From positions 1,459-65,458 of the forward strand of contig JAERTI010000055.1 in the NCBI GenBank assembly GCA_016844925.1: 64,000 bases of DNA, given 5' to 3'. Every line of letters begins with the position of its first letter. Position 1 is the first letter of the stretch. Shown here piece after piece: positions 18,832-43,827 of the stretch. The DNA comes from Candidatus Uhrbacteria bacterium (GTDB lineage Bacteria; Patescibacteriota; Patescibacteriia; UBA9934; GWF2-40-263). The notes beneath the pieces were generated by a model. That model was not told the DNA's origin. It was given only the letters and a program-made list of their open reading frames with translations, and did not search any database. Position numbers and translations under genes: made by a program.

Positions 18832-18888
18832 GAGATAAGTATAACATGACCTGGCTCTTGATTGTGCTGCTTAAAGAAGGAGAGTCCC

Positions 18889-20058
18889 ATGCGCATTCGG
18901 AAGATTCCGTTCCCGCCCATCAACCTCCAGGCATGCCTGGATCCAGACCATCCCGATCACGAGGCTTCATGTACGGAGCTCAGGCGCCAAGCCTGCGACT
19001 ACGGTATTGCCATGCTGTCCGTCGAGGGCGTGACCCCCAGCAGCTACGCGCTGGTCCGTGCCATGATGGAGAGCTACTGGAGCCAGCCCAAGTCGGCACT
19101 GGACCTGGATGTCCGGCCCCAGCACCACCGGCAGGTGGGGCGCATGGAGGCCTACTGCGAAACGGCCATGCCCTACCCCGAGCGCCTCGCCGCGCTCGAG
19201 GAAGACCAGCAGCCGTACCCCCACGCGGGTCCGAACCCACTGGAGCGCTTCTTCTGGCGATTCGGTTCGCGCCCCAGCACGAGCCGCTTCCCCGAGCGTC
19301 ACGCTGACCCGGTCATCCCCGAGCGCTTCGAGCGCGAGTGGGAGCCGGTCATGAACAGCTGGGGCGAGATCGTCCTGGATACCCTGTTCGACCTGGCCGA
19401 GGCCTTGGAATTCGCGTTCCGTCTCCCGCCCGGCACCATGCTGAAGAAGCTGCAGGCGGGCCCCCACCTGATCTCGCCGACGGGCTGCAACCTCCTGGAG
19501 CTGCTGGCCAAGCGCTGCTACAAGCCCGTAGAAGAGCTGTCCTTCGCGCTCAGGCAAGCTGACAGCGAGAACAAGCTCCGTCAGATCAACCGCAACCTGA
19601 GCCTCACCGGCGCGGTCCTCTCTCACTACCACGACGACTTCAACCCCATCACCATCCACGGCCCGGCGAACATGCCCGGCCTGATCTGCTGGGCACGAAG
19701 TGGCGACCCGTTCACGCCCGAGATCCCGTCCGGCTGCCTGTTCGCCCAGTTCGGCGCACAGACCGAGCACCTGTTCGCCGGTGGCCTGCACGAAGATGGT
19801 CCCATGGCGGGCATGCACCAGGTGGTGGTGACCTGGGAGACGCTCCGTGCGCTCTGGATGCGCATCAGACTGGGCCTGCCGCCCATCCGCGTCTCCTCGA
19901 CCTTCTTCGGTCAGGGCAACGCAGACCAGCCCCTGGAGGTTCTGCCCCCGTTCCGTGTGGACGGCTGGCGCCAGCGCTACCCGAGCACCACCTTCGGCGC
20001 TCACTCGGCGGCCGTGATCGAGAAGATCGGTCTGGCCGCTCAGCAGATCGCTGGGTAA
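18889..20058 (+). CDS. 2-oxoglutarate/Fe(II)-dependent oxygenase superfamily protein (isopenicillin-N-synthase-like)
   Basis: Start ATG 18889 preceded by GAAGGAGAG. ..SHYHDDFNPITIHGP.. (HxD), ..GMHQVVV.. (distal His) and ..IRVSSTFF.. (RxS 2OG-binding) in the expected order. Markedly GC-rich, and the long antisense ORFs are GC artefacts. Confidence 0.55.
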   Translation: MRIRKIPFPPINLQACLDPDHPDHEASCTELRRQACDYGIAMLSVEGVTPSSYALVRAMMESYWSQPKSALDLDVRPQHHRQVGRMEAYCETAMPYPERLAALEEDQQPYPHAGPNPLERFFWRFGSRPSTSRFPERHADPVIPERFEREWEPVMNSWGEIVLDTLFDLAEALEFAFRLPPGTMLKKLQAGPHLISPTGCNLLELLAKRCYKPVEELSFALRQADSENKLRQINRNLSLTGAVLSHYHDDFNPITIHGPANMPGLICWARSGDPFTPEIPSGCLFAQFGAQTEHLFAGGLHEDGPMAGMHQVVVTWETLRALWMRIRLGLPPIRVSSTFFGQGNADQPLEVLPPFRVDGWRQRYPSTTFGAHSAAVIEKIGLAAQQIAG

Positions 20059-20065
20059 TCCCCAA

Positions 20066-20092
20066 CGCCCCGTCGTACCACGACGGGTTTTT
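20066..20092 (+). terminator. Rho-independent terminator after the oxygenase gene
   Basis: CCCGTCGT-ACCA-ACGACGGG followed by TTTTTTG. Confidence 0.55.
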
Positions 20093-20118
20093 TGTTACGA
20101 TAATCTCTAGGAGAATCC

Positions 20119-20607
20119 ATGGACGACGACCCAGCCCGCCGCGCGCAACGCTTTCCACTGCTGATCAAACTCGACGAAGACGGTATCGAGTTCACGCACT
20201 TCTTCAACCGCATGGGGCACGTTCGCCTCCCACCCCAGTTCCCCGACCCGCTCCAGAAGCGTGTCCTACAGCTGATCGAACGACTCATGGCTCTACAGAT
20301 CCAAGCCCTCCAGCTCATCCCCGATGAACTACCTCGCTACCAGATCAACGGCACCTGGTCCCCGCTCCCCGCCTCGCTCACCCCAGAGACAGAAGACACC
20401 CTCTTGCTGACTGCCTGGTGGATGGAGCTCGAGAGACGAAAGACCACCCGCCACGACGACTGGGACTGCCAGGAGTGCGGGAAGCTCGTCACACGCAAGC
20501 GTGGAATCTGCCAGAATCACGAATGTGTCTCGTGGGACATCCTCCACATCATCACGGGAGACCCTCATCTCCACCTCGTGCCCAAGACCGGCACAGACAA
20601 CGACTGA
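20119..20607 (+). CDS. hypothetical protein with C-terminal CxxC...CxxxxC zinc-ribbon-like motif (GC-rich)
   Basis: 162 aa, AGGAGA RBS. ..DWDCQECGKLVTRKRGICQNHEC.. No family recognised. Confidence 0.45.
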   Translation: MDDDPARRAQRFPLLIKLDEDGIEFTHFFNRMGHVRLPPQFPDPLQKRVLQLIERLMALQIQALQLIPDELPRYQINGTWSPLPASLTPETEDTLLLTAWWMELERRKTTRHDDWDCQECGKLVTRKRGICQNHECVSWDILHIITGDPHLHLVPKTGTDND

Positions 20608-20665
20608 CCCTCTTGAGGGTAACCTCTCCGATCTTACGTCGGAGTTTTTTCTTTATCCATTGACA
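20605..20665 (+). repeat. copy of the GACCCTC..GAGGGT terminator/-35 junction module (divergent copy)
   Basis: TGA-CCCTCTTGAGGGTA hairpin starting at the stop codon, a second hairpin CTCCG..CGGAG+T6, then TTGACA at 20660-20665. Same family as copies at 26907, 28507, 29149, 29526 and (minus strand) 41261-41291. Confidence 0.6.
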
Positions 20666-20767
20666 AAACACATAAAAAGCCCGTACGCTCCCATCGCTCA
20701 CACAAGAGGCAAGCAACTCCGCCCAACTCTTTGCACGCTCTAGGTGCTCGCGTGAGACAACAGGACC

Positions 20768-21901
20768 ATGGAACAGAGGCAGACCGCCTTGTTCGCCCCG
20801 CGGCTTCTCGTCGCATCCTTCATCATCCTCACGGGCGCTGCCTGCGGTGACCTCTCGGTCTCCGACACGGCGCTCAATGAGTTCGAGCACGCCGGTGGTG
20901 TGTGGGAAACGGACGATGGATTCAGCCACATCGTCTACGATGGCAACAGCTACGGCGACTCCATCACCGACTGCATGAGCACGGAGTACGACTTCGCCCT
21001 CATGTTCGGGGAGTGCTACGAGTACGCTTCCATCCCCTACGCCCTGGGCGCGGTGACGAGTGGCGGCACCATGGACGTGGAGAACCAGTCCACGGGCTCA
21101 TGGGCCACCATGGACGCCTCCAGCTTCCTGGACTTCAACGGCCTCACCCCCGGCATCGCCCGCGTGCTCTGCTACACGGACAAGCCGGAGGAGTACAAGG
21201 CCGACTGCGAGGTCGAGAACGACTACGACAGCTTCGCCCCGGACTTCTACATGGAGATCGACACGGGCGACTACAACACCATCACGGTCTACCGTGGCAG
21301 TGCCAGCAGCGGCCTGGGCGAAGTGTTCCTGGGCAAGGACGGCGACTACAACTGCGACGGCGTGGACACCCCGGACGCCACCGTGCGCCTGGTCCGCACC
21401 TCGCTGGCCTACGACAGCGCGATCATCGAGCTGCTGGGCGAAGGCGGTCACGTCACATGGCCCGAGTGCATGCCCGACGGCTGGTACGACGAGCCCGAGG
21501 ACACCGGCGGTGCCGGCGACACGGGTGGTGACACCGGCATGGCGGGAACCGGTGAGAGCGAGGAGGTTCAGAACTTCCAGTATCCACCGATGTTCTACAT
21601 CACGAAGATCAACGCCCTGTGGCAGGTGACGCCCCAGAGCCAGCAGGCCTACCAGGCCACGGCGGACAGCTTCTTCGAGGAGCACCACCCCGAGCTCTAC
21701 GGCAGCGACATCCACCTGTTCGTGATGCGCCGCATCGACGCGTACTTCACCGACGCCTCCACCCGCGTGTTCTACGACACCCTCCTGAACACCATGGACC
21801 TGGCCGTCGCGCTGGATCTGCAGGCCCCTGCGAACAAGATCTTCGGGCACTGGATCAAGAACTACCGCCACTGGGAAGCCAACCGACAGAACCCTTTCTA
21901 G
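20768..21901 (+). CDS. secreted lipoprotein (hypothetical, GC-rich)
   Basis: 377 aa. Signal peptide with lipobox (..ILTGAACG). Asp/Gly/Thr-rich. No known domain. Followed by terminator CCCTGACC-TACGAC-GGTCAGGG+TTTTTATTT (21907-21940). Confidence 0.5.
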   Translation: MEQRQTALFAPRLLVASFIILTGAACGDLSVSDTALNEFEHAGGVWETDDGFSHIVYDGNSYGDSITDCMSTEYDFALMFGECYEYASIPYALGAVTSGGTMDVENQSTGSWATMDASSFLDFNGLTPGIARVLCYTDKPEEYKADCEVENDYDSFAPDFYMEIDTGDYNTITVYRGSASSGLGEVFLGKDGDYNCDGVDTPDATVRLVRTSLAYDSAIIELLGEGGHVTWPECMPDGWYDEPEDTGGAGDTGGDTGMAGTGESEEVQNFQYPPMFYITKINALWQVTPQSQQAYQATADSFFEEHHPELYGSDIHLFVMRRIDAYFTDASTRVFYDTLLNTMDLAVALDLQAPANKIFGHWIKNYRHWEANRQNPF

Positions 21902-26348: not shown

Positions 26349-26891
26349 ATGCCCCCTGCTCCTGCTCCCCCGTTCCTGACTCGACTCGACGCCTACAGCC
26401 TCTCCCAAGCCGAGAACATCCTCTTCCTGGGAAGCCTCTGGTTCCTGTTCATGAGCTTCCTCATGTTCGTGCAGCCGGGCCCTCTGGATCCGAAGCTGCT
26501 AATCGGCATGACCATCACGCTTCTGGCCGGCGTTGGACTTGGGTGCTGGAGCATCTGGTACCAGCTCACCGGCGAGCACAACGTGTACAAGAAGTTCATC
26601 ACCCTGTGTGAGGAGCAAAGGCTCCTGCAGCAAGGTGAAGAGCTCGCCGCCAGCTACGCGCAGATCAACAGACTCCGACGCATCTACAAGGAAGACACGA
26701 GCCTGTCTGAGACCATGGTGGCGCGCATGCTCAAGGACCTCGACCTCGAGGAAGAACTCCTCCGCGAAACGCAGGTGGCCCTCCACCTCAAGCAGGCGCC
26801 GCTCCTGCAACGAGCCTTCGAGGCAAGCCGCCACGCGTTCCCCTGGGAGAACTTCACCGAGACGGCCAAGCAACCCGCTGTGAGCACCTAG
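26349..26891 (+). CDS. 2-TM membrane protein with C-terminal coiled-coil (island cassette 1)
   Basis: 180 aa. RBS AGAAAGG 7 nt upstream. Two hydrophobic helices then a charged helical tail. GC-rich. Confidence 0.5.
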   Translation: MPPAPAPPFLTRLDAYSLSQAENILFLGSLWFLFMSFLMFVQPGPLDPKLLIGMTITLLAGVGLGCWSIWYQLTGEHNVYKKFITLCEEQRLLQQGEELAASYAQINRLRRIYKEDTSLSETMVARMLKDLDLEEELLRETQVALHLKQAPLLQRAFEASRHAFPWENFTETAKQPAVST

Positions 26892-26906
26892 CTCACGACG
26901 CCCACC

Positions 26907-26939
26907 GACCCTCACGCGAAGGGTCTTTTTCTTTTGACA
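26907..26939 (+). repeat. terminator/-35 junction module copy
   Basis: GACCC-tcacgcgaa-GGGTC, T5, CTTTTGACAA (TTGACA 26934-26939). 17 nt later TAACGT. Confidence 0.65.
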
Positions 26940-26991
26940 AAAGCTCTCAAAACTCCTAACGTCACCCCCTGCTCTTTCAAAGGAGACGCGG

Positions 26992-28509
26992 ATGGCAACG
27001 ACCAGACTCCGGTGGCTCAGCCGGTACCCAATCCCGGGAACAACTGGCCAGCTCATCGGTTCCAAAACAAACGGACTACGCCCTGCAGCAAACGCCTCAG
27101 GTGTGCTTTCAGAGCACATGTCCAACCACGTCCTGAAGAAAATCAATGGCGACCCAGAAGTTCTCGAAGAGATCCTCAGGGCCGTGGTCAACTACTCGGT
27201 GGCCGATTTCCAATGTGCCGCGCATGCGCGCACGGCCATCTTCCGGTGCCTGGTGCAAACGGGTGACAAGTACCTCACTCAACTAGACAGCCTGCTCACC
27301 AAAGCCCACAGGACCTTCTCCAGAATCCCCTACGCTCTGAACATGATCGGCTTCACTGAAGCATGCGGGTTCCGCTACGATCGCGTCGAGCACTACCTCA
27401 TGCTCATCGAAACCCTCGATACCTTCATGGCACGTGAGGTGGGGCCCTGGCTGCCACACGACGACAGACGGAAGCGACCTGCTTACGTTAGCGGTGCGGC
27501 CAAAGGCCTGTCAGAACAACTCGGTCTCGAACCAGGTTCTCTGAAAGCGCTCGGTAAGCCTCCGCTCAGACTTAGACCACGAACTCTCGCTCTAAGCTGC
27601 GAGCTTCACCTCACAGCGCCGGGCGTGAACGAGCTCATGCAGTACACCACGGCCGGCGGAATCGCCCTCACCCTCGGGGCCCTCTGGAGGACCGTCGATG
27701 CCATGCTCCACGCGGGCATGTCTTCCGGATCATTACGCAAGTTCGTCGAACGACTGAACGTCCCCATGCTTCGCTGGGCGCACCAATGCCTCCAAGCAGG
27801 CTCCATCGATCTCAAGATGGTTCGTGCACTACCCCAGCAGCCACTGGACTGGTACATCGCACAGAAAGACCTAAACCTAGACGTTCTCCCTGTGCTGAAA
27901 GCCTGGTCCGATGAAGGCCACCCCTGTGGGTGGAGTGAGTGGATCAAGTTGGGTGGTACCACAGACGCCTGGCAACAAGAGGCCAAAAGGCAGGAGCAGC
28001 GCAAACTCGAACGAGAAGCGCACTTCGCTCAAAAGCAGGCAGGGACAAAGCCGCCATCGCCGCGACCCAAACCAATCCCTACGGTGTCACCTGCGAATCA
28101 AACCCCCACGGGAAGAAAGCGACACCATCCTGGCCACAAAGCACAAGAGCAGACGCAGGAAATCAACTGGGGGGAGACTCTCGTGAATCTCGTAGAGATG
28201 GTTCAAAGCCACCTAGACGATGTTGATGACAATCTCTCCGCTGGAATCCTCCTCTCGCTCATCCGCTCGGGTGATCGCCTCATGCCACGGTCCCGCTGGC
28301 CCAAGATGAAACTCAACAAGCTTCGTCGAGAAGTGAAGCGGCTGGTCGACGGCGCAAGCAACCGTGAGATCAATGCCGCGCTTGGATCCCTAGAGGCCAT
28401 CCGCCTTGTCCGGCAGACCGCTGGCAAGTACCACATCTCCGAAACCACGCCGCGCCACACGGGCGCAGCCGAAATCCGCAAAAGGCTCATCAGCCTCTGC
28501 AGCTCCTGA
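26992..28509 (+). CDS. 505-aa hypothetical soluble protein (island cassette 2)
   Basis: RBS AAAGGAGA. No recognisable motif. Pro/basic-rich linker (..KPPSPRPKPIPTVSP..) between two helical halves. Confidence 0.5.
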   Translation: MATTRLRWLSRYPIPGTTGQLIGSKTNGLRPAANASGVLSEHMSNHVLKKINGDPEVLEEILRAVVNYSVADFQCAAHARTAIFRCLVQTGDKYLTQLDSLLTKAHRTFSRIPYALNMIGFTEACGFRYDRVEHYLMLIETLDTFMAREVGPWLPHDDRRKRPAYVSGAAKGLSEQLGLEPGSLKALGKPPLRLRPRTLALSCELHLTAPGVNELMQYTTAGGIALTLGALWRTVDAMLHAGMSSGSLRKFVERLNVPMLRWAHQCLQAGSIDLKMVRALPQQPLDWYIAQKDLNLDVLPVLKAWSDEGHPCGWSEWIKLGGTTDAWQQEAKRQEQRKLEREAHFAQKQAGTKPPSPRPKPIPTVSPANQTPTGRKRHHPGHKAQEQTQEINWGETLVNLVEMVQSHLDDVDDNLSAGILLSLIRSGDRLMPRSRWPKMKLNKLRREVKRLVDGASNREINAALGSLEAIRLVRQTAGKYHISETTPRHTGAAEIRKRLISLCSS

Positions 28510-28536
28510 CCCTCCTGAGGGTCTTTTTTCTTGACC
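28507..28536 (+). repeat. terminator/-35 junction module copy (stop codon included)
   Basis: TGA-CCCTCCTGAGGGTC-TTTTTT-C-TTGACC. -10 TACGGT 17 nt downstream. Confidence 0.7.
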
Positions 28537-28593
28537 AAGCCCTCCATCTCCCCTACGGTGGCCCTCCGGCGTACGCTGGTAAAGGAACGTACC

Positions 28594-29151
28594 GTGTCAC
28601 CACACCACACCCCTTTCGAGCAAAGAAAGGGGCCCACCTACTTCACCTACGACGAAGTGCTCGCAAAGAGCGACGTGCAGATCATTGCCCTGAGCCTGCT
28701 GATCCCCGTGATGTTTGGCGCTCTGGCAGCGGCCTGGATCTACTTCCCCATCCCAACCACCGCCCAAGACAACATCCCGCTCTTGGTGACCGCTGGCTTG
28801 ATCTCCTCGCTCTGCGCCGGAGGCATCGGCGTCTCGCGCCTCCTGCGCTTCGACCGCACGCTTCACGCCGTGCGAACAAGCGACGAGGGAAAGAGGCTCT
28901 TCAACCGAGGGAGCACCTTGGCCACACTCCACCAGGCAATCCTGAAGGAGGAGGAAGATAACCACTTTCCTCGAACCAAAGATTCCTTTGAAAAGCGCGC
29001 ACAACGCTACCTTGACCGCTGGACGTACTACATCTCGCAGGCCGAGGCGCTCCACCGAGAGCAGCACAACCTCCTCAAGCTCTTCTACCGAAACGAAAAG
29101 CAGCCCGATCCCTGGAAGGATCGATGCAACTGCCCCAAGTTCGGACTCTGA
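28594..29151 (+). CDS. 2-TM membrane protein with charged C-terminal tail (island cassette 3)
   Basis: GTG start 6 nt after AAAGGAA. ..IIALSLLIPVMFGALAAAWIYFPIP.. and ..LLVTAGLISSLCAGGIGV.. helices. Confidence 0.5.
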   Translation: MSPHHTPFEQRKGPTYFTYDEVLAKSDVQIIALSLLIPVMFGALAAAWIYFPIPTTAQDNIPLLVTAGLISSLCAGGIGVSRLLRFDRTLHAVRTSDEGKRLFNRGSTLATLHQAILKEEEDNHFPRTKDSFEKRAQRYLDRWTYYISQAEALHREQHNLLKLFYRNEKQPDPWKDRCNCPKFGL

Positions 29152-29179
29152 CCCTCCTGAGGGTCTTTTTTCTTTGACA
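29149..29179 (+). repeat. terminator/-35 junction module copy (stop codon included)
   Basis: TGA-CCCTCCTGAGGGTC-TTTTTT-CTTTGACAA. -10 TTAGAT 17 nt downstream. Confidence 0.7.
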
Positions 29180-29239
29180 ATTCAACAAATCAACGCTTAG
29201 ATACCGACGTCACAGCACGCGTGACAGAAAGGATGCTTC

Positions 29240-29518
29240 GTGAGCGAACAGAAGATTACCCCAGCTGCCCTGCGCACGGCCTTCAAGCAGTCCATCAGAA
29301 ACTCTCTGGTGGTGGCACTCATCCTGGTCATCTCCATGGCCGTTCTGAGATTCGGCGTCTCACCGGAACCCAACGCAGAGGCCCATGCAATCGTCCTGGG
29401 CTTTGCTGCGCTCCTGCTGGTGATCGTCCTCTGGCACATGATCGGCAACATCTTCTTCTACTGGACCCACCCCGTCCGACGCGCAGCACTCCCAGACCAC
29501 CAGGAACCCTCCTCCTGA
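29240..29518 (+). CDS. small 2-TM membrane protein (island cassette 4)
   Basis: 92 aa. GTG start 6 nt after AAAGGA (same RBS-to-start geometry as cassette 3). The overlapping 135-aa ORF in another frame reads through the terminator and is rejected. Confidence 0.45.
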   Translation: MSEQKITPAALRTAFKQSIRNSLVVALILVISMAVLRFGVSPEPNAEAHAIVLGFAALLLVIVLWHMIGNIFFYWTHPVRRAALPDHQEPSS

Positions 29519-29525
29519 CCACGCC

Positions 29526-29569
29526 GACCCTCCTGAGGGTCTTTTTTCTTTTCCGCAGAACCATTGACA
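29526..29569 (+). repeat. terminator/-35 junction module copy
   Basis: GACCCTCCTGAGGGTC-TTTTTT-CTTTTCC...TTGACA (29564-29569), 17 nt, TATATT (29587-29592). Confidence 0.7.
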
Positions 29570-29651
29570 TTTCAGTTAAAATGAACTATATTCTCGCTCT
29601 GCTTCATTTGTCATGGTGGAGCGGATGAACCCTACTGAAAGGAGACATGAC

Positions 29652-30491
29652 GTGAGGAAAATCCTCTTTCCCCTGCTGGTCGCGGCGGCCACGCTGCTCA
29701 CCGGCTGCTACGGAACGAACGTGGTCATCAACCCGGCGGAAGTCGGACGCGAGCTGAACCCCAGCGGGCTCAGCGAGACGATCCTCCAGCCGAGTTCCTT
29801 CAACCTCGACTGGTGCATGTACACCTGTCCGAAGCTGGTCCGCCTCGAGGTCGCCAAGGCCACCCGCGAGATCACCATCGAGCGCGTGTTCCTGCCCAAG
29901 AGCAACGTGGACCTCAGCGACGTCGAGATCGCGATGCAGTTCCGCGTCCGCCAGGACCAAGACTCCATCAACACGGTGTTCTCCGAGGTCACCCCGCAGC
30001 CCGCGGGTGTCGAGGACACCATGCTCATCTCCAACGAGATGATCTACGCCACCTACCTCGAGCGCATCGGCCCGGAGGCCGTGATCGAGGCGCTGCGTGA
30101 GTACACCGTCGAGGACGTGCTCTCCAACGTGGGCGAGATCGGCGCGCACTCGCGCGACATGGTCAACCAGCGACTGGGCGACAGCCCCGTCGAGGTGACC
30201 GAGCTCTCCTTCCCCAACGGCATCGGCGACCCGCCCGAAGAGGTCCTGGTGGCCAAGCGGCTGCTGTACGCGGTCGACGAGGAGAAGGCACGCGAGGTCA
30301 AGGCCCTGGAGGCCGAGCTCGCCGTGGAGGAGCAGCGCCAGGCCGTGCAGATGGCCCGCGCCAAGAACGACCTGGCCGTGGCCAAGGTGGTGGGCGTCCG
30401 CTACGACGTCTACACCGAGCTCAAGATCATGGAGCGCTTCGCCGAAGAAGAAGTGCCCCTGGGCTACATCCCCGGCGCCAGCGGCCGATAG
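29652..30491 (+). CDS. SPFH/band-7 (stomatin/prohibitin/flotillin/HflK-like) domain lipoprotein
   Basis: GTG start 7 nt after AAAGGAG. Signal peptide with lipobox LLTGC. ..SDVEIAMQFRVRQ.. and especially ..FPNGIGDPPEEVLVAKRLLYA.DEEKAREVKALEAELAVEEQRQAVQMA.. match the SPFH core including the DPPEEV hallmark. Confidence 0.7.
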   Translation: MRKILFPLLVAAATLLTGCYGTNVVINPAEVGRELNPSGLSETILQPSSFNLDWCMYTCPKLVRLEVAKATREITIERVFLPKSNVDLSDVEIAMQFRVRQDQDSINTVFSEVTPQPAGVEDTMLISNEMIYATYLERIGPEAVIEALREYTVEDVLSNVGEIGAHSRDMVNQRLGDSPVEVTELSFPNGIGDPPEEVLVAKRLLYAVDEEKAREVKALEAELAVEEQRQAVQMARAKNDLAVAKVVGVRYDVYTELKIMERFAEEEVPLGYIPGASGR

Positions 30492-30503
30492 AAGGAGAAC
30501 GAC

Positions 30504-30887
30504 ATGAACTTCCTCGGACTGATTTCCTTCCTGGTCTTCGTCGCCCTCCTGATCGGCGGCGGTCTCTGGGCGATCCGTCACTCCATCACCCGTGAGGAGG
30601 AGGACGAGCGGAAGATCTTCAAGTACGGTGGCTGGGTGGCCATCGCCCTGGGGGTGTTCATCACCCTGGGCGTGCTCAACAGCTACGGCAAGATCGACGC
30701 CCCCAACCCCCTATCCGCTCCCGAAGCCGAGATCTCCTCGGTTCCCGCGGAGCGCGCCGAACCCCGAGCCCCCACCTTCGAAGAGGACACCACTCCCTCG
30801 GAGATGGAGAAGGCGCGGGAGGATCAGCGCAAGTCGGTGGACGAGTTCACCGAGCACACGAGCAAGGACGACGCGACCGACGAGTAG
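30504..30887 (+). CDS. small 2-TM membrane protein, likely SPFH-partner (NfeD/YqiJ-like role)
   Basis: 127 aa. RBS GAAGGAGA. Two TM helices then an acidic tail. Starts 13 nt after the SPFH gene (operon). Confidence 0.5.
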   Translation: MNFLGLISFLVFVALLIGGGLWAIRHSITREEEDERKIFKYGGWVAIALGVFITLGVLNSYGKIDAPNPLSAPEAEISSVPAERAEPRAPTFEEDTTPSEMEKAREDQRKSVDEFTEHTSKDDATDE

Positions 30888-30902
30888 TCGCGCCCCTGCA
30901 CC

Positions 30903-30928
30903 CCTGGCCACACCGGTCAGGGTTTTTA
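30903..30928 (+). terminator. terminator after SPFH operon, with an adjacent convergent terminator for the minus-strand hydroxylase gene at ~30940-30965
   Basis: CCCTGG-CCACACCGGT-CAGGG+TTTTT. The second hairpin is CACCGC-tgcgt-GCGGTG with an A-run on the plus strand. Confidence 0.5.
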
Positions 30929-30966
30929 CATACAAAAAAATCACCGCTGCGTGCGGTGAGTTGCGT

Positions 30967-31851
30967 CTAGCCAGCGTCGGCGCGCTGGAAGGTTGCCCAG
31001 CGCCAGGGCGTGAGCCAGTGGGCGGTGAGCGTGGGCGGTATCTCGACGTCCTGCAAGCCAACTTGCTCGAGCTCTCGATCCTTGGGCAAGAACCGAGTGC
31101 CAAACACGATGTCCCACAGAATCAGGTTGCTGGAGAAGTTGGTGTTGGACTCCCCCATGACCTCACTGTGATGCCAGCGGTGCAAGTCGCACGTCGCCAA
31201 GATCCAGTTGAGCGGACCGAGGATCACGCGGATGTTGGCGTGCTGCATGCCACCGTTAATGGCCGTGAAGACACTGAACAGCACCAACGTCTGCGAACTC
31301 GCTCCCAGCAGGACCAGCGGCGCCACGGGCGCGAGGTACGTTGCCAGGAAGTTGATCGGGTGCAGGCGCGTGGCCGAGAAGAAGTACAGCTTGTCCGAGC
31401 TGTGATGCACCGCATGGATGCGCCAGAGCCAGTCCCACTTGTGCAGCGCGCGGTGCGCCCAGTAGAACCCGAAGTCGCCGATGACCAGCGCGAGCAAGAG
31501 CTCGAGCGAGAGTGGCCAGTGGTGTGGCCACAGGCTGCTGCCCGCCATCGCGGCCGCCTTCATGGATCCCCAGACCAGTGCACTGAAGCACACGGCCTGC
31601 ACTAGCGGCGGAAAGATCACCGCCGTGAAGATGAGATGCCAGAGATCCACCTTCACTTCACGGCGCCCTACGCGCCAGTCCTCTCGGTGCGGCATGCACA
31701 CCTGCACGATCATCACCGCCACCCCCGCCACAATGGTCGTGGCAAAGGTGATCAGCGTCTCGTCCACCCCCAACGTCAGCAGCGATCCAGCTGTGACCAG
31801 GGCGATCAGCAGAACTCCCGGGTACAGCGCGTGTTCAATCAGCTTCATCAT
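30967..31851 (-). CDS. fatty-acid hydroxylase superfamily protein (sterol desaturase / C-4 methyl-sterol oxidase-like), multi-TM
   Basis: Three histidine boxes in canonical order: HRALH, HAVHH, HRWHH. Four or more TM helices. GC-rich. Confidence 0.7.
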   Translation of the reverse strand: MMKLIEHALYPGVLLIALVTAGSLLTLGVDETLITFATTIVAGVAVMIVQVCMPHREDWRVGRREVKVDLWHLIFTAVIFPPLVQAVCFSALVWGSMKAAAMAGSSLWPHHWPLSLELLLALVIGDFGFYWAHRALHKWDWLWRIHAVHHSSDKLYFFSATRLHPINFLATYLAPVAPLVLLGASSQTLVLFSVFTAINGGMQHANIRVILGPLNWILATCDLHRWHHSEVMGESNTNFSSNLILWDIVFGTRFLPKDRELEQVGLQDVEIPPTLTAHWLTPWRWATFQRADAG

Positions 31852-31975: not shown

Positions 31976-32803
31976 ATGCAGAGAATCTTGGAGATTGCGC
32001 AGAAGGCCGCCAAGGCCGGCGGGCAAGAACTCGCCCGATTCCGTGGTGAGAGGATCGCCCTGGAGAAACGCACCAAGCTGGACGGCTCGGTGGTCACCGC
32101 CGCCGACGGTGCGGCTTCCGTCGTGATCCGAGATGTCATCCTGGCCCACGACCGCGACGCGTTCATCGTGGACGAAGAAGACCCGACCTCGCACGATCGC
32201 GAGCGCCCGGACCGCATGTGGGTCGTGGACCCCCTCGACGGAACCCGCACCTTCGCCAGCGGCAGGGATGGCTACTGCACCCTCGTCGGCTACGTGGTAG
32301 ATGGTGTCCCCCGCGTGGGAGTCATCTACTTCCCGGACACGAAGATCATCGTCTACGGCGGCAAGGGTCTCGGCGCGTGGATCGACGCCCCGTCGCTCAC
32401 CAGGCCCACCCGTCTTGCGGGATGGTCGCCTGAGGCCCTCGAGAACAGCAGGCTGTTCATCCCGGACAAGCCCGAGGCGCGTGAGCTCTACAAGCGCCTG
32501 ACCACCGCGCTGGGCACCAACCAGCTGGAAGGTCAGAACATCGCAGGGGCCATGTACCTGGCCCTGCTGCGCAACGCCTGCGAGTTCGTCATCACCCGCA
32601 TGGACAACCCGTTCATCTGGGACATCGCGGCCCCGCACGCCCTCCTGCTCGCCATCGGTGGCGACATCGTGAACCTACGCGGAGAGCCCATCGACTACCA
32701 GAGAACCACCCTGCTGGAGCACGGCACGATCGGAATGATCCACCCGCACCTCCTCCCCCAGATCCTCGAGCGTCTTCCCCCACTGGAACAGATGCGGATC
32801 TGA
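31976..32803 (+). CDS. inositol-monophosphatase family phosphatase (CysQ/SuhB-like)
   Basis: ..DGSVVTAADGAASVVIRDVI........FIVDEEDP.. and ..WVVDPLDGTRTFASG.. (WxxDP(I/L)DGT motif). Terminator CCGCCT..AGGCGG+ATTTTTG follows. Confidence 0.7.
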   Translation: MQRILEIAQKAAKAGGQELARFRGERIALEKRTKLDGSVVTAADGAASVVIRDVILAHDRDAFIVDEEDPTSHDRERPDRMWVVDPLDGTRTFASGRDGYCTLVGYVVDGVPRVGVIYFPDTKIIVYGGKGLGAWIDAPSLTRPTRLAGWSPEALENSRLFIPDKPEARELYKRLTTALGTNQLEGQNIAGAMYLALLRNACEFVITRMDNPFIWDIAAPHALLLAIGGDIVNLRGEPIDYQRTTLLEHGTIGMIHPHLLPQILERLPPLEQMRI

Positions 32804-32863: not shown

Positions 32864-32905
32864 GTTCGGTTTTTGTTCGGTGCACAATGCGAACAGAAAG
32901 CGAAC
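32864..32905. promoter_or_regulatory. candidate LexA operator: 16-nt-arm imperfect palindrome GTTCGGTTTTTGTTCG-N10-CGAACAGAAAGCGAAC, 10 nt upstream of lexA
   Basis: Seen directly in sequence. Each arm is itself a GTTCG/CGAAC direct repeat. GAAC/GTTC half-sites are the core of Gram-positive-type SOS boxes. Confidence 0.45.
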
Positions 32906-34451: not shown

Positions 34452-34937
34452 CTAGTGATGGAGCCGAAGCTCGAAGTGTCGATCTGAGCCGTCGACTAGC
34501 GTGAAGCCGAGCTTCTGGTAGAGAGACCGTGCGGCTTCGTGCCAGGGCTCGCTTACGAGCCTGATGACCGCAAGCCGTGGCCGAACCTCACGGGCTTGCG
34601 CCAGCAAGTCCTCCATGACCACACGCCCAAGGCCGCAGCCTCGGAAGTCGGTGTCGACCAGAACGTACTCAACGCTGCCGACACCCTTGCGCCAGTCGTA
34701 ACTCACCATGAGCAGGGCCACCGCGACCATCTGGCGGGTCTCTCGCTCACGAATGATCGAGATGCGTGTCCGCGTGCGGTCCATGAGCCTGGCCTGGAAC
34801 AATGCGTCGCGATACTCCAGATCTCCAGAGCGAAGCAGATCCTGCCCACGTTCGTTCAGAAACGTCAGGCAATCTCGGTAGTCTTCCAGCCGAGCGGCTG
34901 CGATTCTGAAACGATCATCGTCAAAGGGCATGATCAC
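34452..34937 (-). CDS. GNAT-family N-acetyltransferase
   Basis: 161 aa. ..VDTDFRGCGLGRVVMEDLLAQAR.. (acetyl-CoA-binding motif A, Q/RxxGxG/A). GC-rich. Confidence 0.7.
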   Translation of the reverse strand: MIMPFDDDRFRIAAARLEDYRDCLTFLNERGQDLLRSGDLEYRDALFQARLMDRTRTRISIIRERETRQMVAVALLMVSYDWRKGVGSVEYVLVDTDFRGCGLGRVVMEDLLAQAREVRPRLAVIRLVSEPWHEAARSLYQKLGFTLVDGSDRHFELRLHH

Positions 34938-38002: not shown

Positions 38003-39145
38003 CTAAGCCGCACGCTTTACAGCCTCGGCAACAACATCTGCCACTCCTTCATCAAACGGAGACGGAAGGATCTTGTGCACCGTTGGCTCTGGCACCATTT
38101 TTGAAAGTGCCGATGCTGCAGCTACCCGCATGGCAGGTGTAATTGTTTGTATCCGGGCCTCAAGTGCTCCTTTGAATATTCCAGGAAATGCCAGCACGTT
38201 ATTCACCTGATTCGGAAAATCGGATCGCCCCGTTGCCACCACCGCCGCTCCAGCCGCTTCGGCAACGTCAGGCATAATCTCAGGTACAGGATTTGAAAGC
38301 GCAAAAATAATCGGCTGTGCCGCCATGGACCGCACCATCTCTTCATCAACAAGCCCTGGCTGACTCACGCCAATAAAGACATCCGCCCCTTTAAGAGCCT
38401 CCGCCAATGTTCCCGTTCTGCCTTCTGGATTGATATGCGCCGCCAACTCATCCTTATATGGATTCATGCCCCCGCGCCCAACAGCAATCATGCCGCGGGA
38501 ATCCACCATGGCCATGTGCTTGAGCCCTGCATCGAACAATAAGTTTGCAATTCCCATACCACCGGCACCAGCACCGGCCACCACCACACAGACATCCTCA
38601 ATCTTCTTCCCCACAACCTTCAACGCATTCATGAGGCCAGCGAGTACCACGATAGCCGTCCCATGCTGATCATCGTGCATTACAGGAATGTTGAGCTCTT
38701 CCTCGAGCCGACGCTCTATTTCAAAACAACGTGGAGCAGAGATGTCCTCGAGATTGATCCCCCCGAAGCCGGGAGCGATCCACTTCACCGCCTGAACAAT
38801 CTCATCAACATCCTGCGTGTCCAGACAAATCGGATACGCATCAACGTTTGCAAAATGTTTAAACAAAATCGCTTTCCCCTCCATAACGGGCAACCCCGCC
38901 TCAGGGCCAATATTCCCTAAGCCTAATACCGCAGACCCATCCGTAACCACAGCCACAGACCGTCCCTTAATCGTCAGATCCCACGCCTGAGACTGATCCG
39001 CTGCAATCAACCGACACGGCTCAGCCACGCCAGGGGTGTAGGCAATAGATAAGTCATCACTGTTCTCCATTGGAAACGTCGACTGGATTTCCAGCTTCCC
39101 CTGCTTCTTCCGATGAAGATCGGCGGATTGATCTGCGTAGCTCAT
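38003..39145 (-). CDS. NAD(P)-dependent malic enzyme (short, MaeB-N-domain type)
   Basis: ..LSIAYTPGVAEPC..IA........DLT.KG..VAVVTDGSAVLGLGNIGPEAGLPVMEGKAILFK.FA.VDA.PI.L.......EIV..VK.IAP.FGGINLEDI.AP.CFEIE..L.. and the AGAGAGG Rossmann motif. Confidence 0.85.
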   Translation of the reverse strand: MSYADQSADLHRKKQGKLEIQSTFPMENSDDLSIAYTPGVAEPCRLIAADQSQAWDLTIKGRSVAVVTDGSAVLGLGNIGPEAGLPVMEGKAILFKHFANVDAYPICLDTQDVDEIVQAVKWIAPGFGGINLEDISAPRCFEIERRLEEELNIPVMHDDQHGTAIVVLAGLMNALKVVGKKIEDVCVVVAGAGAGGMGIANLLFDAGLKHMAMVDSRGMIAVGRGGMNPYKDELAAHINPEGRTGTLAEALKGADVFIGVSQPGLVDEEMVRSMAAQPIIFALSNPVPEIMPDVAEAAGAAVVATGRSDFPNQVNNVLAFPGIFKGALEARIQTITPAMRVAAASALSKMVPEPTVHKILPSPFDEGVADVVAEAVKRAA

Positions 39146-41238
39146 AAGTCGTTTACATCTCTTAGAAAGCTCATGCCACTAATATCTTTTTTCACACGCT
39201 CCCCCATTTCATCGAGCACGATCGTGGGGCCGTCATCACTACGATCATTCCAACGAGAGCGACTCGGTGATGCGCTGTAGGCCGCCTTCAGTCGGACTTC
39301 TTCCAGAAGACCTGTTGGAAGCTCCTGCAAAAACTGTGAGGGCTGGCTTATCATGAGCGTATCATAGCCGGCAGTGATGGGATATGTGTAAAACAAGTGC
39401 TTTCGTGCGCGCGTGGTCGCTACGTAAAACAAGCGACGTTCCTCCTCAAGTCCGCCTTTCTCCTCCAGCGCACGACCGATTGGAAACTTCCCGTCGATCA
39501 GATGCATCACAAACACCGCATCCCACTCAAGTCCCTTGGCCTGGTGAATCGTTGAAAGAACCATCTTCTCATCATCCTCTCGTCCACCTTGCTCACGTAC
39601 AGATCCATAATCCGCACTTAACGAAACTTCGTCTAGGAACGTCGTGAGACTCTTATATCCCTCAGCAAACAACGCGAACTGTTCCAGATCGTCTAGACGA
39701 TCCATAAAATCTGGATACTCAGCCTCGACGTAATCCCGGTAGTCACCCCCGGTCACCGCTCGGATCAAATCTGCCGGGAGCTCTTCAGCTGACATCTTTG
39801 TGAGCGTACGCACAAGCATGGCCCAACTGGCCTGTGCCCTCTTAGGCACTTTAATCTCTCGGGTCAGCACATCCTGCAGAGCTTCTATGTCTCGTATTTG
39901 TCCGATAATTTTTTGTGCGGTCACGATACCGATCCCGTTCATGAGCCCGAGCACACGCATCCATGCCATCTCATCACGTGGATTCTGCTTAATGCGCAAG
40001 TGCGCCACGATGTCTTTTACGTGAGCACGCTCAAAAAACTTCAGACCGCCGCGATACTCATATGGGATATCACGCTTCATGAGCTCGAACTCGAGCGTCT
40101 GTGAATGAAAGGCTGCGCGGAACAAGACCGCGATCTCATTAAGAGGAACACCCTCATCTCGCAGCGCCAGAATACGCTGAGCAATAAACTGCGCCTCTTG
40201 AGAACTATTCGATGCCGGCACAAGATTCGGTCGCTCCATCTCACCGCGCACAGCCGTCAGTTCTTTTTTAAACTGATCTTTATTTTGTGTAATCGATGCA
40301 TTCGCCACAGCCAAAATATCTGGTGTAGATCGATAGTTGGTCGTGAGCCGAAATGTCTTTGTCTGATCGTACGTCTGTGGGAAGCCAAGAATATTCCTGA
40401 TCTCAGCTGCGCGGAACGAATAAATCGACTGAGCATCATCCCCCACGACCAAAATGTTTCCATGCTCGGATGCCAGCTGCCTGACAATCTCTGCCTGCAC
40501 AACGTTCGTGTCCTGGTACTCGTCGACCAAGATAAACTCAAACTGTTGTGCGAGCTTACGCCGCACCCCCTCATGGCTCTGCAAGAGCTTCCGCAGGTTG
40601 AGAAGCAAGTCGTCAAAGTCCATGCTGTCCGCCTCCCGCTTACGTACCTGGTACAGCTCGCCAATTCGTTCGATGATCGGCGCAATCTCTGTGAATGACG
40701 GATACTTCTGTTCAATCACTTGAGGAATCGTCTTCCCAGAGTTCATGCCGTAGCTAATCATGCCATGCAGCTTTGCTGGTGAAGGAAATCGCCGTGCACT
40801 CGTGTCGACGTTCAATGCCTTGATACAGACCTTCACCAAACTCTTTGCGTCCTCCTGATCTAGAATCGTAAAGCTTGGTGAGTAGCCAAGCTCACGGCCA
40901 TAGATACGAAGCAGACGATTCGCGATCGAGTGAAATGTCCCTCCCCAGAGCCCGACTGGGTAGCGTCCCAGGAGACCTTCGACTCGAGAGAGCATTTCTT
41001 TTGCTGCCTTGTTCGTAAACGTAACGAGCAGGATGTTGTCCGCACTCACGCCACGCTCAAGAAGATACGCCACACGATAGGTAATTGTCCGGGTCTTTCC
41101 AGATCCAGCTCCGGCGAGCACCAGGGCAGGGCCATCTCCATGAAGCACCACATCCAGCTGCTCAGGGTTTAATTCTGCTTTAAAATCAATCGTTGAGCGC
41201 GAAAGATCAAAGTCATCTTGTAAAACAAATTCTTTCAT
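39142..41238 (-). CDS. uvrD: ATP-dependent DNA helicase UvrD/PcrA
   Basis: Walker A ..AGAGSGKT.., motif II ..ILVDEYQDTN.., motif ..YRST.. and a C-terminal UvrD_C region. Confidence 0.9.
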   Translation of the reverse strand: MKEFVLQDDFDLSRSTIDFKAELNPEQLDVVLHGDGPALVLAGAGSGKTRTITYRVAYLLERGVSADNILLVTFTNKAAKEMLSRVEGLLGRYPVGLWGGTFHSIANRLLRIYGRELGYSPSFTILDQEDAKSLVKVCIKALNVDTSARRFPSPAKLHGMISYGMNSGKTIPQVIEQKYPSFTEIAPIIERIGELYQVRKREADSMDFDDLLLNLRKLLQSHEGVRRKLAQQFEFILVDEYQDTNVVQAEIVRQLASEHGNILVVGDDAQSIYSFRAAEIRNILGFPQTYDQTKTFRLTTNYRSTPDILAVANASITQNKDQFKKELTAVRGEMERPNLVPASNSSQEAQFIAQRILALRDEGVPLNEIAVLFRAAFHSQTLEFELMKRDIPYEYRGGLKFFERAHVKDIVAHLRIKQNPRDEMAWMRVLGLMNGIGIVTAQKIIGQIRDIEALQDVLTREIKVPKRAQASWAMLVRTLTKMSAEELPADLIRAVTGGDYRDYVEAEYPDFMDRLDDLEQFALFAEGYKSLTTFLDEVSLSADYGSVREQGGREDDEKMVLSTIHQAKGLEWDAVFVMHLIDGKFPIGRALEEKGGLEEERRLFYVATTRARKHLFYTYPITAGYDTLMISQPSQFLQELPTGLLEEVRLKAAYSASPSRSRWNDRSDDGPTIVLDEMGERVKKDISGMSFLRDVNDL

Positions 41239-41260
41239 AACGGGGCCATAGTATCATACG

Positions 41261-41291
41261 AGTCAAAAGAAAAAGACCCTCGTCAAGGGTC
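41261..41291 (-). repeat. terminator/-35 junction module copy (minus-strand orientation)
   Basis: Minus strand reads GACCCT-TGACGA-GGGTC-TTTTTCTTTTGACT directly after the stop of the 461-aa GC-rich gene and 22 nt before uvrD. Confidence 0.6.
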
Positions 41292-41303
41292 TCGTGTGTG
41301 CAC

Positions 41304-42689
41304 CTAGAGCGGTGCGCAGGCCTTACGGAGCTCGTCCGTCATGCCCTCAAGGTCAGGCCCTCCGTCTGAGAGCTTGCGCATGAGATGCACGTCCGCCAGG
41401 TGAACGTGAGGGAACACGCTGGCACGGACCTTTCGTGCGAACCCGTCGTCCAGGAACGCCCTGGTCTCGGGAACCCGACGCGTGAGGCGTCGGTGGATGG
41501 CACGCAGATCATCATGCCAGGCGATCTGGCGAGAGTCGGCGACATCCTCTCTGCGATCGATGAGAATGGCCGCTTGCAGCAGAAGCTCTTCGAGCTGCCA
41601 GTGCAGATCTCGCAGCACCATGCCGTGGTAGCTCTGCATCAGCACGTCGCGTGAGCGGAGCATCACTGCGGCGGCAGCGTCTGCCCCCTCGCTTTTGGCC
41701 ACGTCAGCAGCCTCGCGCATGATCGCGGCAGCTTGGCGCATATTGCGCACGGAGTGCCGGAGCGACCGCACGAACGGCCGGGTCACGATCTGCTCGAGCT
41801 GACGTGCGTACTGCTCGAGTCGATCCGCCTCACGGCGGACCGTTGCGGTCGAGCGTACAGCTCCGTCGCCACCTGAGCGTCCACGCACCGGCAGCAGACG
41901 ATCATCGCCGAACAGCACCCTGGACTGCAGCCGGTGCAGCTGTGAGTTGCCGATCTGTCGACAGATGATGCGCAGGCGGTCGATGTAGACCTCCAGCACC
42001 ACCTCGCGGAAACTGATACGACGCGTGATGCCTCGCACCGTCTGGATCCGCTCAGCGAGATCCTTCTGCCCAGCGAAGATGATGAGCGGAATGCGCCCCG
42101 GGTTGAACCGGCCCAAGGAGTCCTTGAGCTTGCCAGCCTGGATCGCACGCGCCAGCGCTGCCACCTTGTTCTCGTCGATGACGCGACCATGAGCATCCAG
42201 CAGCGCAGCGGCCACCAGGACGTACTCTTCACGCCCATCTTCCTCCAGGAGATGAAGCGTCCAGGACGTCTTGACCATCCAGTCGAAGGTCTCGTCCCAG
42301 CTCGCGAGAGCCGGAAGCTCGACGTGCTTGCCACGCGTTTGCGCATGCGCCATCCCGCGGCGCGCCTTGTAGACGCTCTCGTACGAGATGAAACACTGCT
42401 GCGCGTAGGTCACCTTCTCTACGCCATTGAGGCGCTCGGACACCCTGAGGTTCCGAGAGAGAATGCGACCGGGCTCCAGCTCCTTGATGCCCTTGAGGGC
42501 CTCGATGCTGTGCGCCGGCACCTCGTAGAGGCAGTGCGGCACGAGCTCGATCAGAGCGAAGTCCTTCACCTCGAGCGGCGGCGGCTTCTTGCCCTTGCTG
42601 GGCCTCTTGCGCAGAAGCTTGAAGCTGCGCTTGATGACGACCAGGTTGAGTGGATCCGGCCACTCGAACGGGTCACGGTAATGAGCCAC
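41304..42689 (-). CDS. 461-aa hypothetical protein (GC-rich insertion upstream of uvrD)
   Basis: GTG start 7 nt after AGAGGAG. A TTGACA-17-TATTTT promoter sits upstream. No family recognised. Arg-rich helical C-terminal half. Confidence 0.5.
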   Translation of the reverse strand: MAHYRDPFEWPDPLNLVVIKRSFKLLRKRPSKGKKPPPLEVKDFALIELVPHCLYEVPAHSIEALKGIKELEPGRILSRNLRVSERLNGVEKVTYAQQCFISYESVYKARRGMAHAQTRGKHVELPALASWDETFDWMVKTSWTLHLLEEDGREEYVLVAAALLDAHGRVIDENKVAALARAIQAGKLKDSLGRFNPGRIPLIIFAGQKDLAERIQTVRGITRRISFREVVLEVYIDRLRIICRQIGNSQLHRLQSRVLFGDDRLLPVRGRSGGDGAVRSTATVRREADRLEQYARQLEQIVTRPFVRSLRHSVRNMRQAAAIMREAADVAKSEGADAAAAVMLRSRDVLMQSYHGMVLRDLHWQLEELLLQAAILIDRREDVADSRQIAWHDDLRAIHRRLTRRVPETRAFLDDGFARKVRASVFPHVHLADVHLMRKLSDGGPDLEGMTDELRKACAPL

Positions 42690-42804
42690 GATTCATCTCC
42701 TCTGTATCTGTAGAATTCTCGGTGAATCGGCACTATAAAATAATAAAAAAACCCCTGAATGTCAATCCAGAAGCCTTCTTTTTTTAACAACGACGTACCC
42801 TTAC

Positions 42805-43827
42805 CTACTTAAGGTATCGATACTTGTTATCAATGTGCTGATCAAATGTTGCGGAGTAAATCGCCACTCCCTCAGGAGTCGTCAAGAAGTACAAATACTC
42901 AGAATCTTGTGGGTTCAGCACGGCATTGATCGCATTCATACCAGGGTTACTGATGGGCCCTGGTGGCAATCCAAGATTCTTATACGTATTGTAAGGCGAG
43001 TTCACCCGAGAGTCCTCGAGGGTGACACCAGGATCATTCTTTCCTGTGATGTAGTTCACCGTCGAGTCGGCCTGCAGGGCCATCCCAATTCTCAGGCGGC
43101 TAAAGAAGATCCCTGCCACAAGAGCCATATCCTCAGGATCACGCACCTCACGTTCAACGATGGACGCGAGCGTGATCACCTCATGAAGCGTCATACCATT
43201 TTCAAACACGAGCGTATCAGGAATCACGATATTGTTTTCAGCCATGCGACGCTTGAGTGTGAGCACCATGGTGTCCGCAACTGTCTCAGCATTTGCTCCT
43301 TCGGCAAAACGATAGGTGTCAGGAAACAAGTACCCCTCAAGACCCTGCCCCTGTGGAATACCACCAAGCACATCCGTCGAGGTAAGCATCCACTTACCAT
43401 TCTCCCCGCTCACTGTTGCCCACTCTTCATCCGTCACCTGTGCAAGAGCCTCGACAACTGTTTCTCCAATCTGCGCACGTGTATACCCCTCAGGAATCGT
43501 GACCTCAACTTCATTGGCTTCTGCAAACGCCAGCTCTGAGACCACCGAGGAGAGACTCATGCCTGGCGTTAGTTCAAAGCTCCCCGCCTGAAGTGTTGCG
43601 TTATTCAGCTTGACGTAAACTTTGAAAAACAATGGACTCGTAATGAGCTCCGCCTCCTGAAGCGCTGCGCCAATAGTCTCGACAGAAGCACCTGCCTCGA
43701 CATCAAACGCCACCGCCTCAGCGTCAGCAGCGGGACTTATCATGTACGCATCGTACAAATACGACCCGCCCATGAGGCTTCCAAGCACTAAACAGATTCC
43801 CAGGAATAAAAGAATAGCTCGAATCAT
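42805..43827 (-). CDS. mltG: endolytic murein transglycosylase MltG (YceG-like)
   Basis: N-terminal TM anchor, ..GASVETIGAALQEA.LI......F........AT.LQAGSFEL.PGMS.... and the YceG C-terminal pattern ..GLPPGPISNPG..A.NAVLNP. Confidence 0.8.
   Translation of the reverse strand: MIRAILLFLGICLVLGSLMGGSYLYDAYMISPAADAEAVAFDVEAGASVETIGAALQEAELITSPLFFKVYVKLNNATLQAGSFELTPGMSLSSVVSELAFAEANEVEVTIPEGYTRAQIGETVVEALAQVTDEEWATVSGENGKWMLTSTDVLGGIPQGQGLEGYLFPDTYRFAEGANAETVADTMVLTLKRRMAENNIVIPDTLVFENGMTLHEVITLASIVEREVRDPEDMALVAGIFFSRLRIGMALQADSTVNYITGKNDPGVTLEDSRVNSPYNTYKNLGLPPGPISNPGMNAINAVLNPQDSEYLYFLTTPEGVAIYSATFDQHIDNKYRYLK

Follow-up and report, generated by a model that had tools for sequence, protein, structure and literature searches.

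Lineage-restricted orphan genes are common in genomes of the Candidate Phyla Radiation (CPR), and orphan genes are often patchy in their distribution and AT-rich. Here, we describe a gene, referred to as gene X, in a 64,000-nucleotide (nt) stretch of Candidatus Uhrbacteria DNA (contig JAERTI010000055.1 of assembly GCA_016844925.1; the whole stretch is referred to as the window, and positions are those of the window). Gene X (41304..42689, minus strand) is an open reading frame (ORF) of 461 amino acids (aa) that begins with GTG and ends with TAG. Immediately downstream of it, in the same orientation, lies a gene for a UvrD-family helicase, an arrangement that resembles Gabija (GajA/GajB)-like UvrD-helicase defense systems, and a first-pass annotation made from the DNA letters had read gene X as an inserted gene with a possible anti-phage or DNA-processing role. 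We favor, with moderate confidence, the reading that gene X represents a vertically inherited, single-copy family confined to Uhrbacteria, whose product is probably a non-enzymatic binder of nucleic acids or other polyanions and belongs to normal cell biology rather than to mobile or defense genes.

Distribution and predicted structure of protein X

A word-indexed search of 5.8 billion proteins returned 34 homolog clusters, none with a Pfam domain, and an exhaustive phmmer search of 1.84 billion representatives (50% identity) returned just 58 matches, 17 of which were below 1e-30. Few further members were added when the word-indexed search was run with distant profiles. All named matches are hypothetical proteins of Ca. 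Uhrbacteria, Patescibacteria, or the Parcubacteria group, and two distant clusters are also labeled Uhrbacteria. Members of the family are 340 to 480 aa long or are fragments, and the homologs align over their full length down to approximately 25% identity.

In Pfam, the only match of the window protein was to FlgM (E = 0.14; 12.8 bits against a gathering cutoff of 25), and among 60 aligned members no family was matched by more than three members (best E = 0.005). The NCBIfam search of protein X gave no match. Residues 167 to 189 (DENKVAALARAIQAGKLKDSLGR) are similar to the sigma-binding helix at the C terminus of FlgM (anti-sigma-28; PF04316), a likeness found in 3 of the 60 members with a best E value of 0.03. 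Since this match covers 23 of 461 residues, scores below the gathering cutoff, and occurs in few members, it was treated as chance. Homology to a housekeeping family, which the first-pass annotation had named as one of the findings that would speak against its proposal, was found in neither Pfam nor NCBIfam.

Protein X is a soluble, strongly basic protein of 52.6 kDa (pI 9.8; 12% Arg), each segment of which has a pI above 9.3. The full-length AlphaFold2 model, built with 60 sequences, has a mean predicted local distance difference test (pLDDT) score of 93.2 and a predicted template modeling (pTM) score of 0.89, with a variable loop at residues 264 to 280 modeled at low confidence. The model contains an N-terminal beta domain (approximately residues 11 to 105) of five strands (residues 18 to 25, 39 to 50, 54 to 56, 76 to 79, and 99 to 103) and a short helix. 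A loop (residues 27 to 38) joins the first two long strands at the tip of a beta-hairpin and is rich in Lys and Arg in the close clade. Residues 106 to 461 are modeled as nearly all long helices, one of them of 58 residues. Of the 56 Arg residues, 35 fall in residues 231 to 461 and 21 in residues 1 to 230, in agreement with the Arg-rich, helical C-terminal half described in the first-pass annotation. The near-invariant residues of the family (R21, Y55, G74, L77, R79, N80, F100, A109, R111, E124, K175, A178, N196, R214, R228, P305, F417, L454, and A457) are mainly Arg, Lys, and Asn together with structural Gly, Pro, Phe, and Leu, and no catalytic-looking constellation of acids or histidines was seen among them.

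With a fold match defined as a Foldseek E value of at most 0.001 or a template modeling (TM) score of at least 0.5, no match was found in PDB or BFVD. The best hit of the full model had an E value of 0.05 in PDB (7vq3, AtALMT1; TM score of 0.14) and 0.69 in BFVD, and the N-terminal domain alone (pLDDT of 87) reached E = 2.1 and TM scores of at most 0.24 against PDB. Sequence-profile matches to PDB entries (designed coiled coils, YfiT, and Mor; E = 0.0008 to 2) were rejected as compositional, and the Mor match covers a strand-helix segment with no helix-turn-helix motif. Provisionally, we regard both the family and the fold as new relative to Pfam, NCBIfam, PDB, and BFVD; we do not claim a new kind of system.

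A conserved slot between yceG and uvrD

In the window, gene X is preceded by yceG/mltG (42805..43827, minus strand; 340 aa; Pfam YceG, 3e-79) and followed by uvrD/pcrA (39142..41238, minus strand; 698 aa; Pfam UvrD-helicase, 8e-76, and UvrD_C, 3e-58), with a spacer of 65 nt between gene X and the start of uvrD. Both this spacing and the co-directional UvrD/PcrA helicase had been correctly noted in the first-pass annotation. The gene order of the region is PGK, enolase, iPGM, nth, PAP2, cytidylyltransferase, yceG, X, uvrD, and malic enzyme; dinB and lexA often come next. The yceG-X-uvrD order was found in every Uhrbacteria-type locus examined, comprising twelve species-level genomes and several metagenome contigs, as part of a block of about 15 syntenic genes. 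The slot is kept even where X is 33%, 28%, or 25% identical to the window protein and the corresponding UvrD proteins are 73%, 72%, and 68% identical. Across all slot loci with a diverged X (25 to 36%), UvrD remains 68 to 74% identical, within a range of 68 to 84% across the relatives. The main groups are the same in the identity matrices of X and of UvrD (Spearman's rho of 0.54, with UvrD near saturation).

That X sits in the same slot of all relatives, even at 25% identity, indicates an old, vertically inherited resident and not an insertion. No empty yceG-uvrD site was present in any relative examined, no flanking repeats bracket gene X, the 64-kb window contains no tRNA, and there is no integrase at gene X. 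A hidden Markov model of the family, searched against all ORFs of the window and of 27 loci, identified no paralogs and one copy per locus. Homologs were absent from IMG/VR viral contigs (0 loci) and, by tblastn, from INPHARED phages and PLSDB plasmids, and no PHROGs family matches protein X. The description of gene X as inserted is therefore not borne out.

The association with the helicase is a different matter, as the adjacency does recur in every Uhrbacteria-type locus. As functional evidence it carries little weight: helicase adjacency is kept wherever the whole block is kept, and is explained by the synteny of that block within one lineage. Three or four distant subfamilies are located elsewhere, with no helicase nearby. 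P0083 and P0091 lie between DsbA and spermine synthase/Lgt and P0087 between a pilin gene and a class II aminoacyl-tRNA synthetase (aaRS), whereas P0050 is located beside sigma-70-region-4-like genes and has apparently lost the adjacency. Within the slot, insertions of 0.2 to 1.2 kb separate X from uvrD in four relatives (L003, L006, L007, and L012).

The block itself is not fixed at every junction. On the JGI contig that carries P0034, two further genes without a Pfam match (417 aa and 385 aa) interrupt the block at the yceG-X and iPGM-nth junctions, and in L003 an unknown gene of 289 aa separates enolase from iPGM, from which it appears that the block tolerates lineage-specific unknown genes at several junctions. 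Two metagenome-assembled genomes titled "uncultured Gammaproteobacteria bacterium" (L007, CAZELN010000001.1; L014, CAYHRJ010000018.1) carry the complete Uhrbacteria-type block with UvrD proteins 73 to 77% identical to that of the window, which suggests that their taxonomy is mislabeled.

Selection and nucleotide composition

Gene X is a real protein-coding gene under purifying selection. Compared with the relative L027 (97% identical), the window gene has 49 synonymous and 16 non-synonymous changes, giving a ratio of non-synonymous to synonymous divergence (dN/dS) of 0.098. In this comparison, dS is 0.16 for X and 0.48 for uvrD, and dN is reversed (0.016 for X and 0.004 for uvrD). The synonymous comparison is confined to the window and L027, as older pairs are saturated.

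Local GC content rises from approximately 0.51 to between 0.61 and 0.66 precisely across the gene X ORF and falls back at both ends. The gene has a GC content of 0.637, with values of 0.71, 0.42, and 0.788 at first, second, and third codon positions (GC1, GC2, and GC3, respectively), compared with 0.51 to 0.53 overall and a GC3 of 0.53 to 0.56 in its four neighbors. The first-pass annotation was thus accurate in calling gene X a GC-rich gene of 461 aa and of no known family. Because the GC3 excess is also seen in relatives at differing loci, it is a property of the family and not the mark of one transfer. The combination of high GC3 and low dS is compatible both with synonymous-site selection and with a frequent exchange of alleles accompanied by GC-biased conversion. 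Translational selection is an unlikely cause of the high GC3, as the genes that we take to be L10 and EF-Ts, from our own reading of their N-terminal sequences, have a GC3 of just 0.58 to 0.63.

Several antisense ORFs of 68 to 187 aa overlap gene X. An Rfam match to IRES_Bip inside the gene (42198-42280, minus strand; 21.6 bits against a gathering cutoff of 40) was set aside as chance, and no structured RNA was otherwise matched. Elsewhere in the window, other GC-rich genes and islands (GC of 0.59 to 0.66 and GC3 up to 0.91, against a genome GC of 0.53) are found at 18862-21901, 26349-31605, 31976-32803, and 34452-34937. Most of these genes have no Pfam match, with the exceptions of an inositol monophosphatase and a GNAT acetyltransferase, and it seems that unknown genes of high GC content make up a class in this genome.

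Predicted transcription of gene X and uvrD

From signals read in the DNA, gene X is predicted to be an autonomous transcription unit that has a promoter and a Shine-Dalgarno sequence and is flanked on both sides by intrinsic terminators. The GTG start is preceded at 7 nt by the Shine-Dalgarno sequence AGAGGAG (42697..42703, minus strand), which is identical in L027, and the relatives have GGAGG-type sequences at the equivalent position. Upstream is a sigma-70-type promoter, TTGACA-17-TATTTT (42765..42737, minus strand), that matches 10 of 12 consensus positions. Sites of this type occur once in 2.2 kb compared with 0.5 times in shuffled sequences, and TTGAC(A/G)-17-TAnnTT precedes gene X in nearly all relatives read. 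Both start signals are as the first-pass annotation had described them. A terminator-like hairpin with a T-run follows yceG (42780..42745, minus strand; RNA fold of -14.5 kcal/mol, z = -3.8), and its loop contains the -35 hexamer of the gene X promoter, so that terminator and promoter overlap.

Gene X ends in an intrinsic terminator (41263..41293, minus strand), GAGACCCT-TGAC-GAGGGTCT followed by TTTTCTTTT and then GAC, which is identical in L027. The hairpin, GAGACCCTTGACGAGGGTCTT, and its T-run (41293..41273) have a fold energy of -13.7 kcal/mol (z = -3.2). This terminator is one of five copies in the window of a GACCCT-loop-AGGGTC module, against 0.04 expected, and five copies were reached in 0 of 100 shuffles; the junction module reported in the first-pass annotation is therefore genuine. 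The gene X copy is at 41275-41291 and the other four are at 26907-26925, 28508-28523, 29150-29165, and 29526-29541. T5-6 C T2-4 comes after every copy, and GAC comes immediately after it in four of them. Near-identical modules (GACCCTCCTGAGGGTC followed by TTTTTTCTT(T)GAC) lie 3' of four consecutive GC-rich, Pfam-unmatched genes between 26.3 and 29.6 kb. In the first three module copies (26907, 28508, and 29150), the GAC is within a TTGAC(A/C) hexamer located 17 nt before a -10-like hexamer of the next gene. The module is species specific, being present among the relatives in L027 (97%) only.

The transcription layout across the lineage was read from the regions upstream of X and uvrD at 13 to 15 loci. 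A hairpin with a T-run follows gene X in most loci read. In the window, uvrD is preceded by a putative extended -10 element, TGATACTAT (41248..41256, minus strand), that ends 9 nt before the ATG. A TGnTAnAAT-like extended -10 element at approximately 9 to 10 nt before the uvrD ATG, with no Shine-Dalgarno sequence, is found in the window and 12 relatives (e.g., L008, L010, and L014). The closeness of this element to the ATG, together with the lack of a Shine-Dalgarno sequence, indicates that the uvrD mRNA is probably leaderless and transcribed independently of gene X, and its recurrence suggests that a leaderless uvrD/pcrA mRNA is conserved across the Uhrbacteria loci examined. We infer that gene X and uvrD are separate transcription units throughout the lineage; as an operon partner of PcrA/UvrD, X would be an odd case, with a predicted terminator and a predicted uvrD promoter lying between the two genes.

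Seven relatives (L006, L007, L008, L014, L015, L003, and L012) have a strong hairpin directly after the -10 element of the X promoter, GACCCTCCGGTG...CCTGGAGGGT followed by a U-run (-15 to -23 kcal/mol), with the X Shine-Dalgarno sequence in its 3' arm. This hairpin could represent a yceG terminator that the X promoter overlaps; alternatively, it could be a leader attenuator or an element that sequesters the Shine-Dalgarno sequence. In the window, a stem in the 5' untranslated region of gene X that encloses the Shine-Dalgarno sequence (GATTCA...TGAATC) is not significant (z = -0.86).

SOS regulation of X or uvrD was considered and rejected, as the SOS-box-like motif GTTC-N7-GTTC is absent upstream of both genes, although lexA carries two such boxes. 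These two boxes are inverted and lie upstream of the lexA ATG (32915), at 32864-32878 (plus strand) and 32891-32905 (minus strand), and the box sequence is also present before lexA in L028. We take them to resemble the alphaproteobacterial LexA box, a motif that one would not expect in a Patescibacterium.

Possible roles of protein X

In the reading that we favor, X would hold a fixed slot between yceG/mltG and pcrA/uvrD in most of the Uhrbacteria lineage, its position beside the helicase would reflect the synteny of a larger block and not a partnership, and the protein would belong to the normal cell biology of Uhrbacteria rather than to mobile or defense genes. It would act as a non-enzymatic binder or scaffold of a polyanion, most plausibly DNA or RNA, a proposal that derives from the high pI, the basic hairpin tip, the Arg, Lys, and Asn residues among the near-invariant positions, and the lack of a catalytic constellation. 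Several points weigh against this reading. Binding of nucleic acids is deduced from charge and residue type, protein X may have a remote known fold beyond the coverage of PDB and BFVD, and the slot count is one of recovered loci. A functional link could underlie the adjacency to pcrA/uvrD, which persists in a block that includes nth, dinB, and lexA as well. In addition, GC3 is higher in X than in any other long ORF at 11 of the 16 loci from relatives, two of which (L017 and L022) have X at another genome position; the divergence of X from L027 at four-fold sites is 0.112 compared with 0.302 for the adjacent uvrD; and its non-synonymous rate is 1.6 to 4 times that of UvrD. A plain housekeeping model explains neither the family-wide GC3 excess nor the low synonymous divergence of X.

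X could be a dedicated accessory factor of PcrA/UvrD (for example, a loader, a regulator, or a substrate adaptor), in which case selection would maintain the adjacency. The two genes are adjacent in at least 16 distinct genomes, even where X is 25% identical, protein X is basic, and nth, dinB, and lexA are found in the block. We nevertheless consider this role unlikely: the adjacency is unspecific in an approximately 15-gene block that includes glycolysis genes, X ends in a terminator, a separate promoter is predicted for uvrD, insertions between the two genes are tolerated in four relatives, no SOS-box-like motif lies upstream of X, and no helicase accompanies the distant members found by DsbA/Lgt, pilin/aaRS, or sigma-like genes. 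The compositional anomalies could instead be those of a stand-alone, fast-evolving gene directed against phages or other mobile genetic elements, with alleles exchanged by recombination and GC3 raised by GC-biased gene conversion. Such a gene would account for the elevated dN, the drop to 25 to 30% identity at a constant locus, the family-wide GC3 excess, and the insulated single-gene unit, and the threefold lower synonymous divergence of X relative to uvrD in the comparison with L027 is what recent allele transfer would give. However, PADLOC-DB 2.0 gave no credible match: the window protein matched ZorA alone (E = 0.024; 11 bits), and one of the 60 members matched CARF_HEPN (2.7e-4), with no match for the other 59. 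There are also no nuclease, ATPase, or other effector motifs in X and no partner genes, dN/dS is 0.10, and the groupings of X and UvrD largely agree. Defense genes are typically patchy, whereas X is present as one copy in the same slot of all Uhrbacteria-type loci recovered and not in an island-like, variable context. A conflict role is, in our judgment, highly unlikely, and the anti-phage role suggested in the first-pass annotation is not upheld.

Two further accounts are already contradicted. A recent horizontal gain from a GC-rich donor, inserted before uvrD, would match the contrast in composition (GC of 0.64 versus 0.51; GC3 of 0.79 versus 0.55) and the terminator module that X has in common with other GC-rich unknown genes in the window. 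It is scarcely credible given orthologs in the same slot in all relatives, with the GC excess there too, the absence of homologs outside Patescibacteria, and the lack of repeats, tRNA, and integrase. Still less can be said for a chance open frame that makes no protein. GC-rich DNA does yield long ORFs, as the overlapping antisense frames illustrate, but with a dN/dS of 0.10, full-length protein conservation to 25% identity, a pLDDT of 93, and a conserved ribosome-binding site and promoter, the probability of this account is practically nil. A bolder proposal makes X the founder of a fold and family that are both new, with a novel role on nucleic acids, either as a PcrA/UvrD cofactor or as a stand-alone immunity protein, encoded by a recombination-prone, insulated single-gene module in which the high GC3 and low dS would be footprints of frequent allele exchange with GC-biased conversion or of strong synonymous-site selection, in CPR genomes that are otherwise streamlined. 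We regard this proposal as distinctly doubtful.

If X is indeed a vertically inherited family of normal Uhrbacteria biology, it is one more lineage-restricted unknown of the CPR, although an unusually clean one, with a fixed locus, full-length conservation, and a confident, unmatched model. It would then lend itself well to structural and biochemical studies of what sets Uhrbacteria apart. The locus also calls for caution, as GC content and adjacency to a helicase are by themselves insufficient for calling a gene an insertion or a defense candidate. A vertically inherited gene that keeps its GC3 10 to 25 points above that of the genome over deep divergence, and at differing loci, would point to recombination specific to the gene, or to selection at synonymous sites, in reduced genomes. 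This evolutionary anomaly in GC3 and dS may be the more interesting thread.

Comparison with known systems

The long helices of protein X are a feature of the de novo antiparallel coiled coil sc-apCC-4 (PDB 8a3k), which gave a profile E value of 8e-4 over approximately residues 232 to 338, and also of spectrin, alpha-catenin, and ALMT channels. The long-helix matches in PDB differ from the model of protein X, with TM scores of 0.10 to 0.24 and root mean square deviations above 12 Å (mostly above 20 Å), and the likeness to coiled-coil and helical-repeat proteins is one of helical composition and not of homology. The resemblance to Gabija-type systems likewise stops at gene order. Unlike in those systems, the helicase at this locus is a conserved housekeeping PcrA/UvrD amid glycolysis and repair genes, X lacks a PADLOC match and any motif of a nuclease or an ATPase, X and uvrD are predicted to be separate transcription units, and the locus is invariant. 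The closest kind is the lineage-specific orphan family of CPR/Patescibacteria, which X resembles in being lineage restricted, in having only entries named "hypothetical protein," and in matching no Pfam or NCBIfam model. Unlike typical orphans, X is neither patchy nor AT-rich: it combines a fixed slot, full-length conservation, and a confident compact fold with a GC3 above that of the genome in most members.

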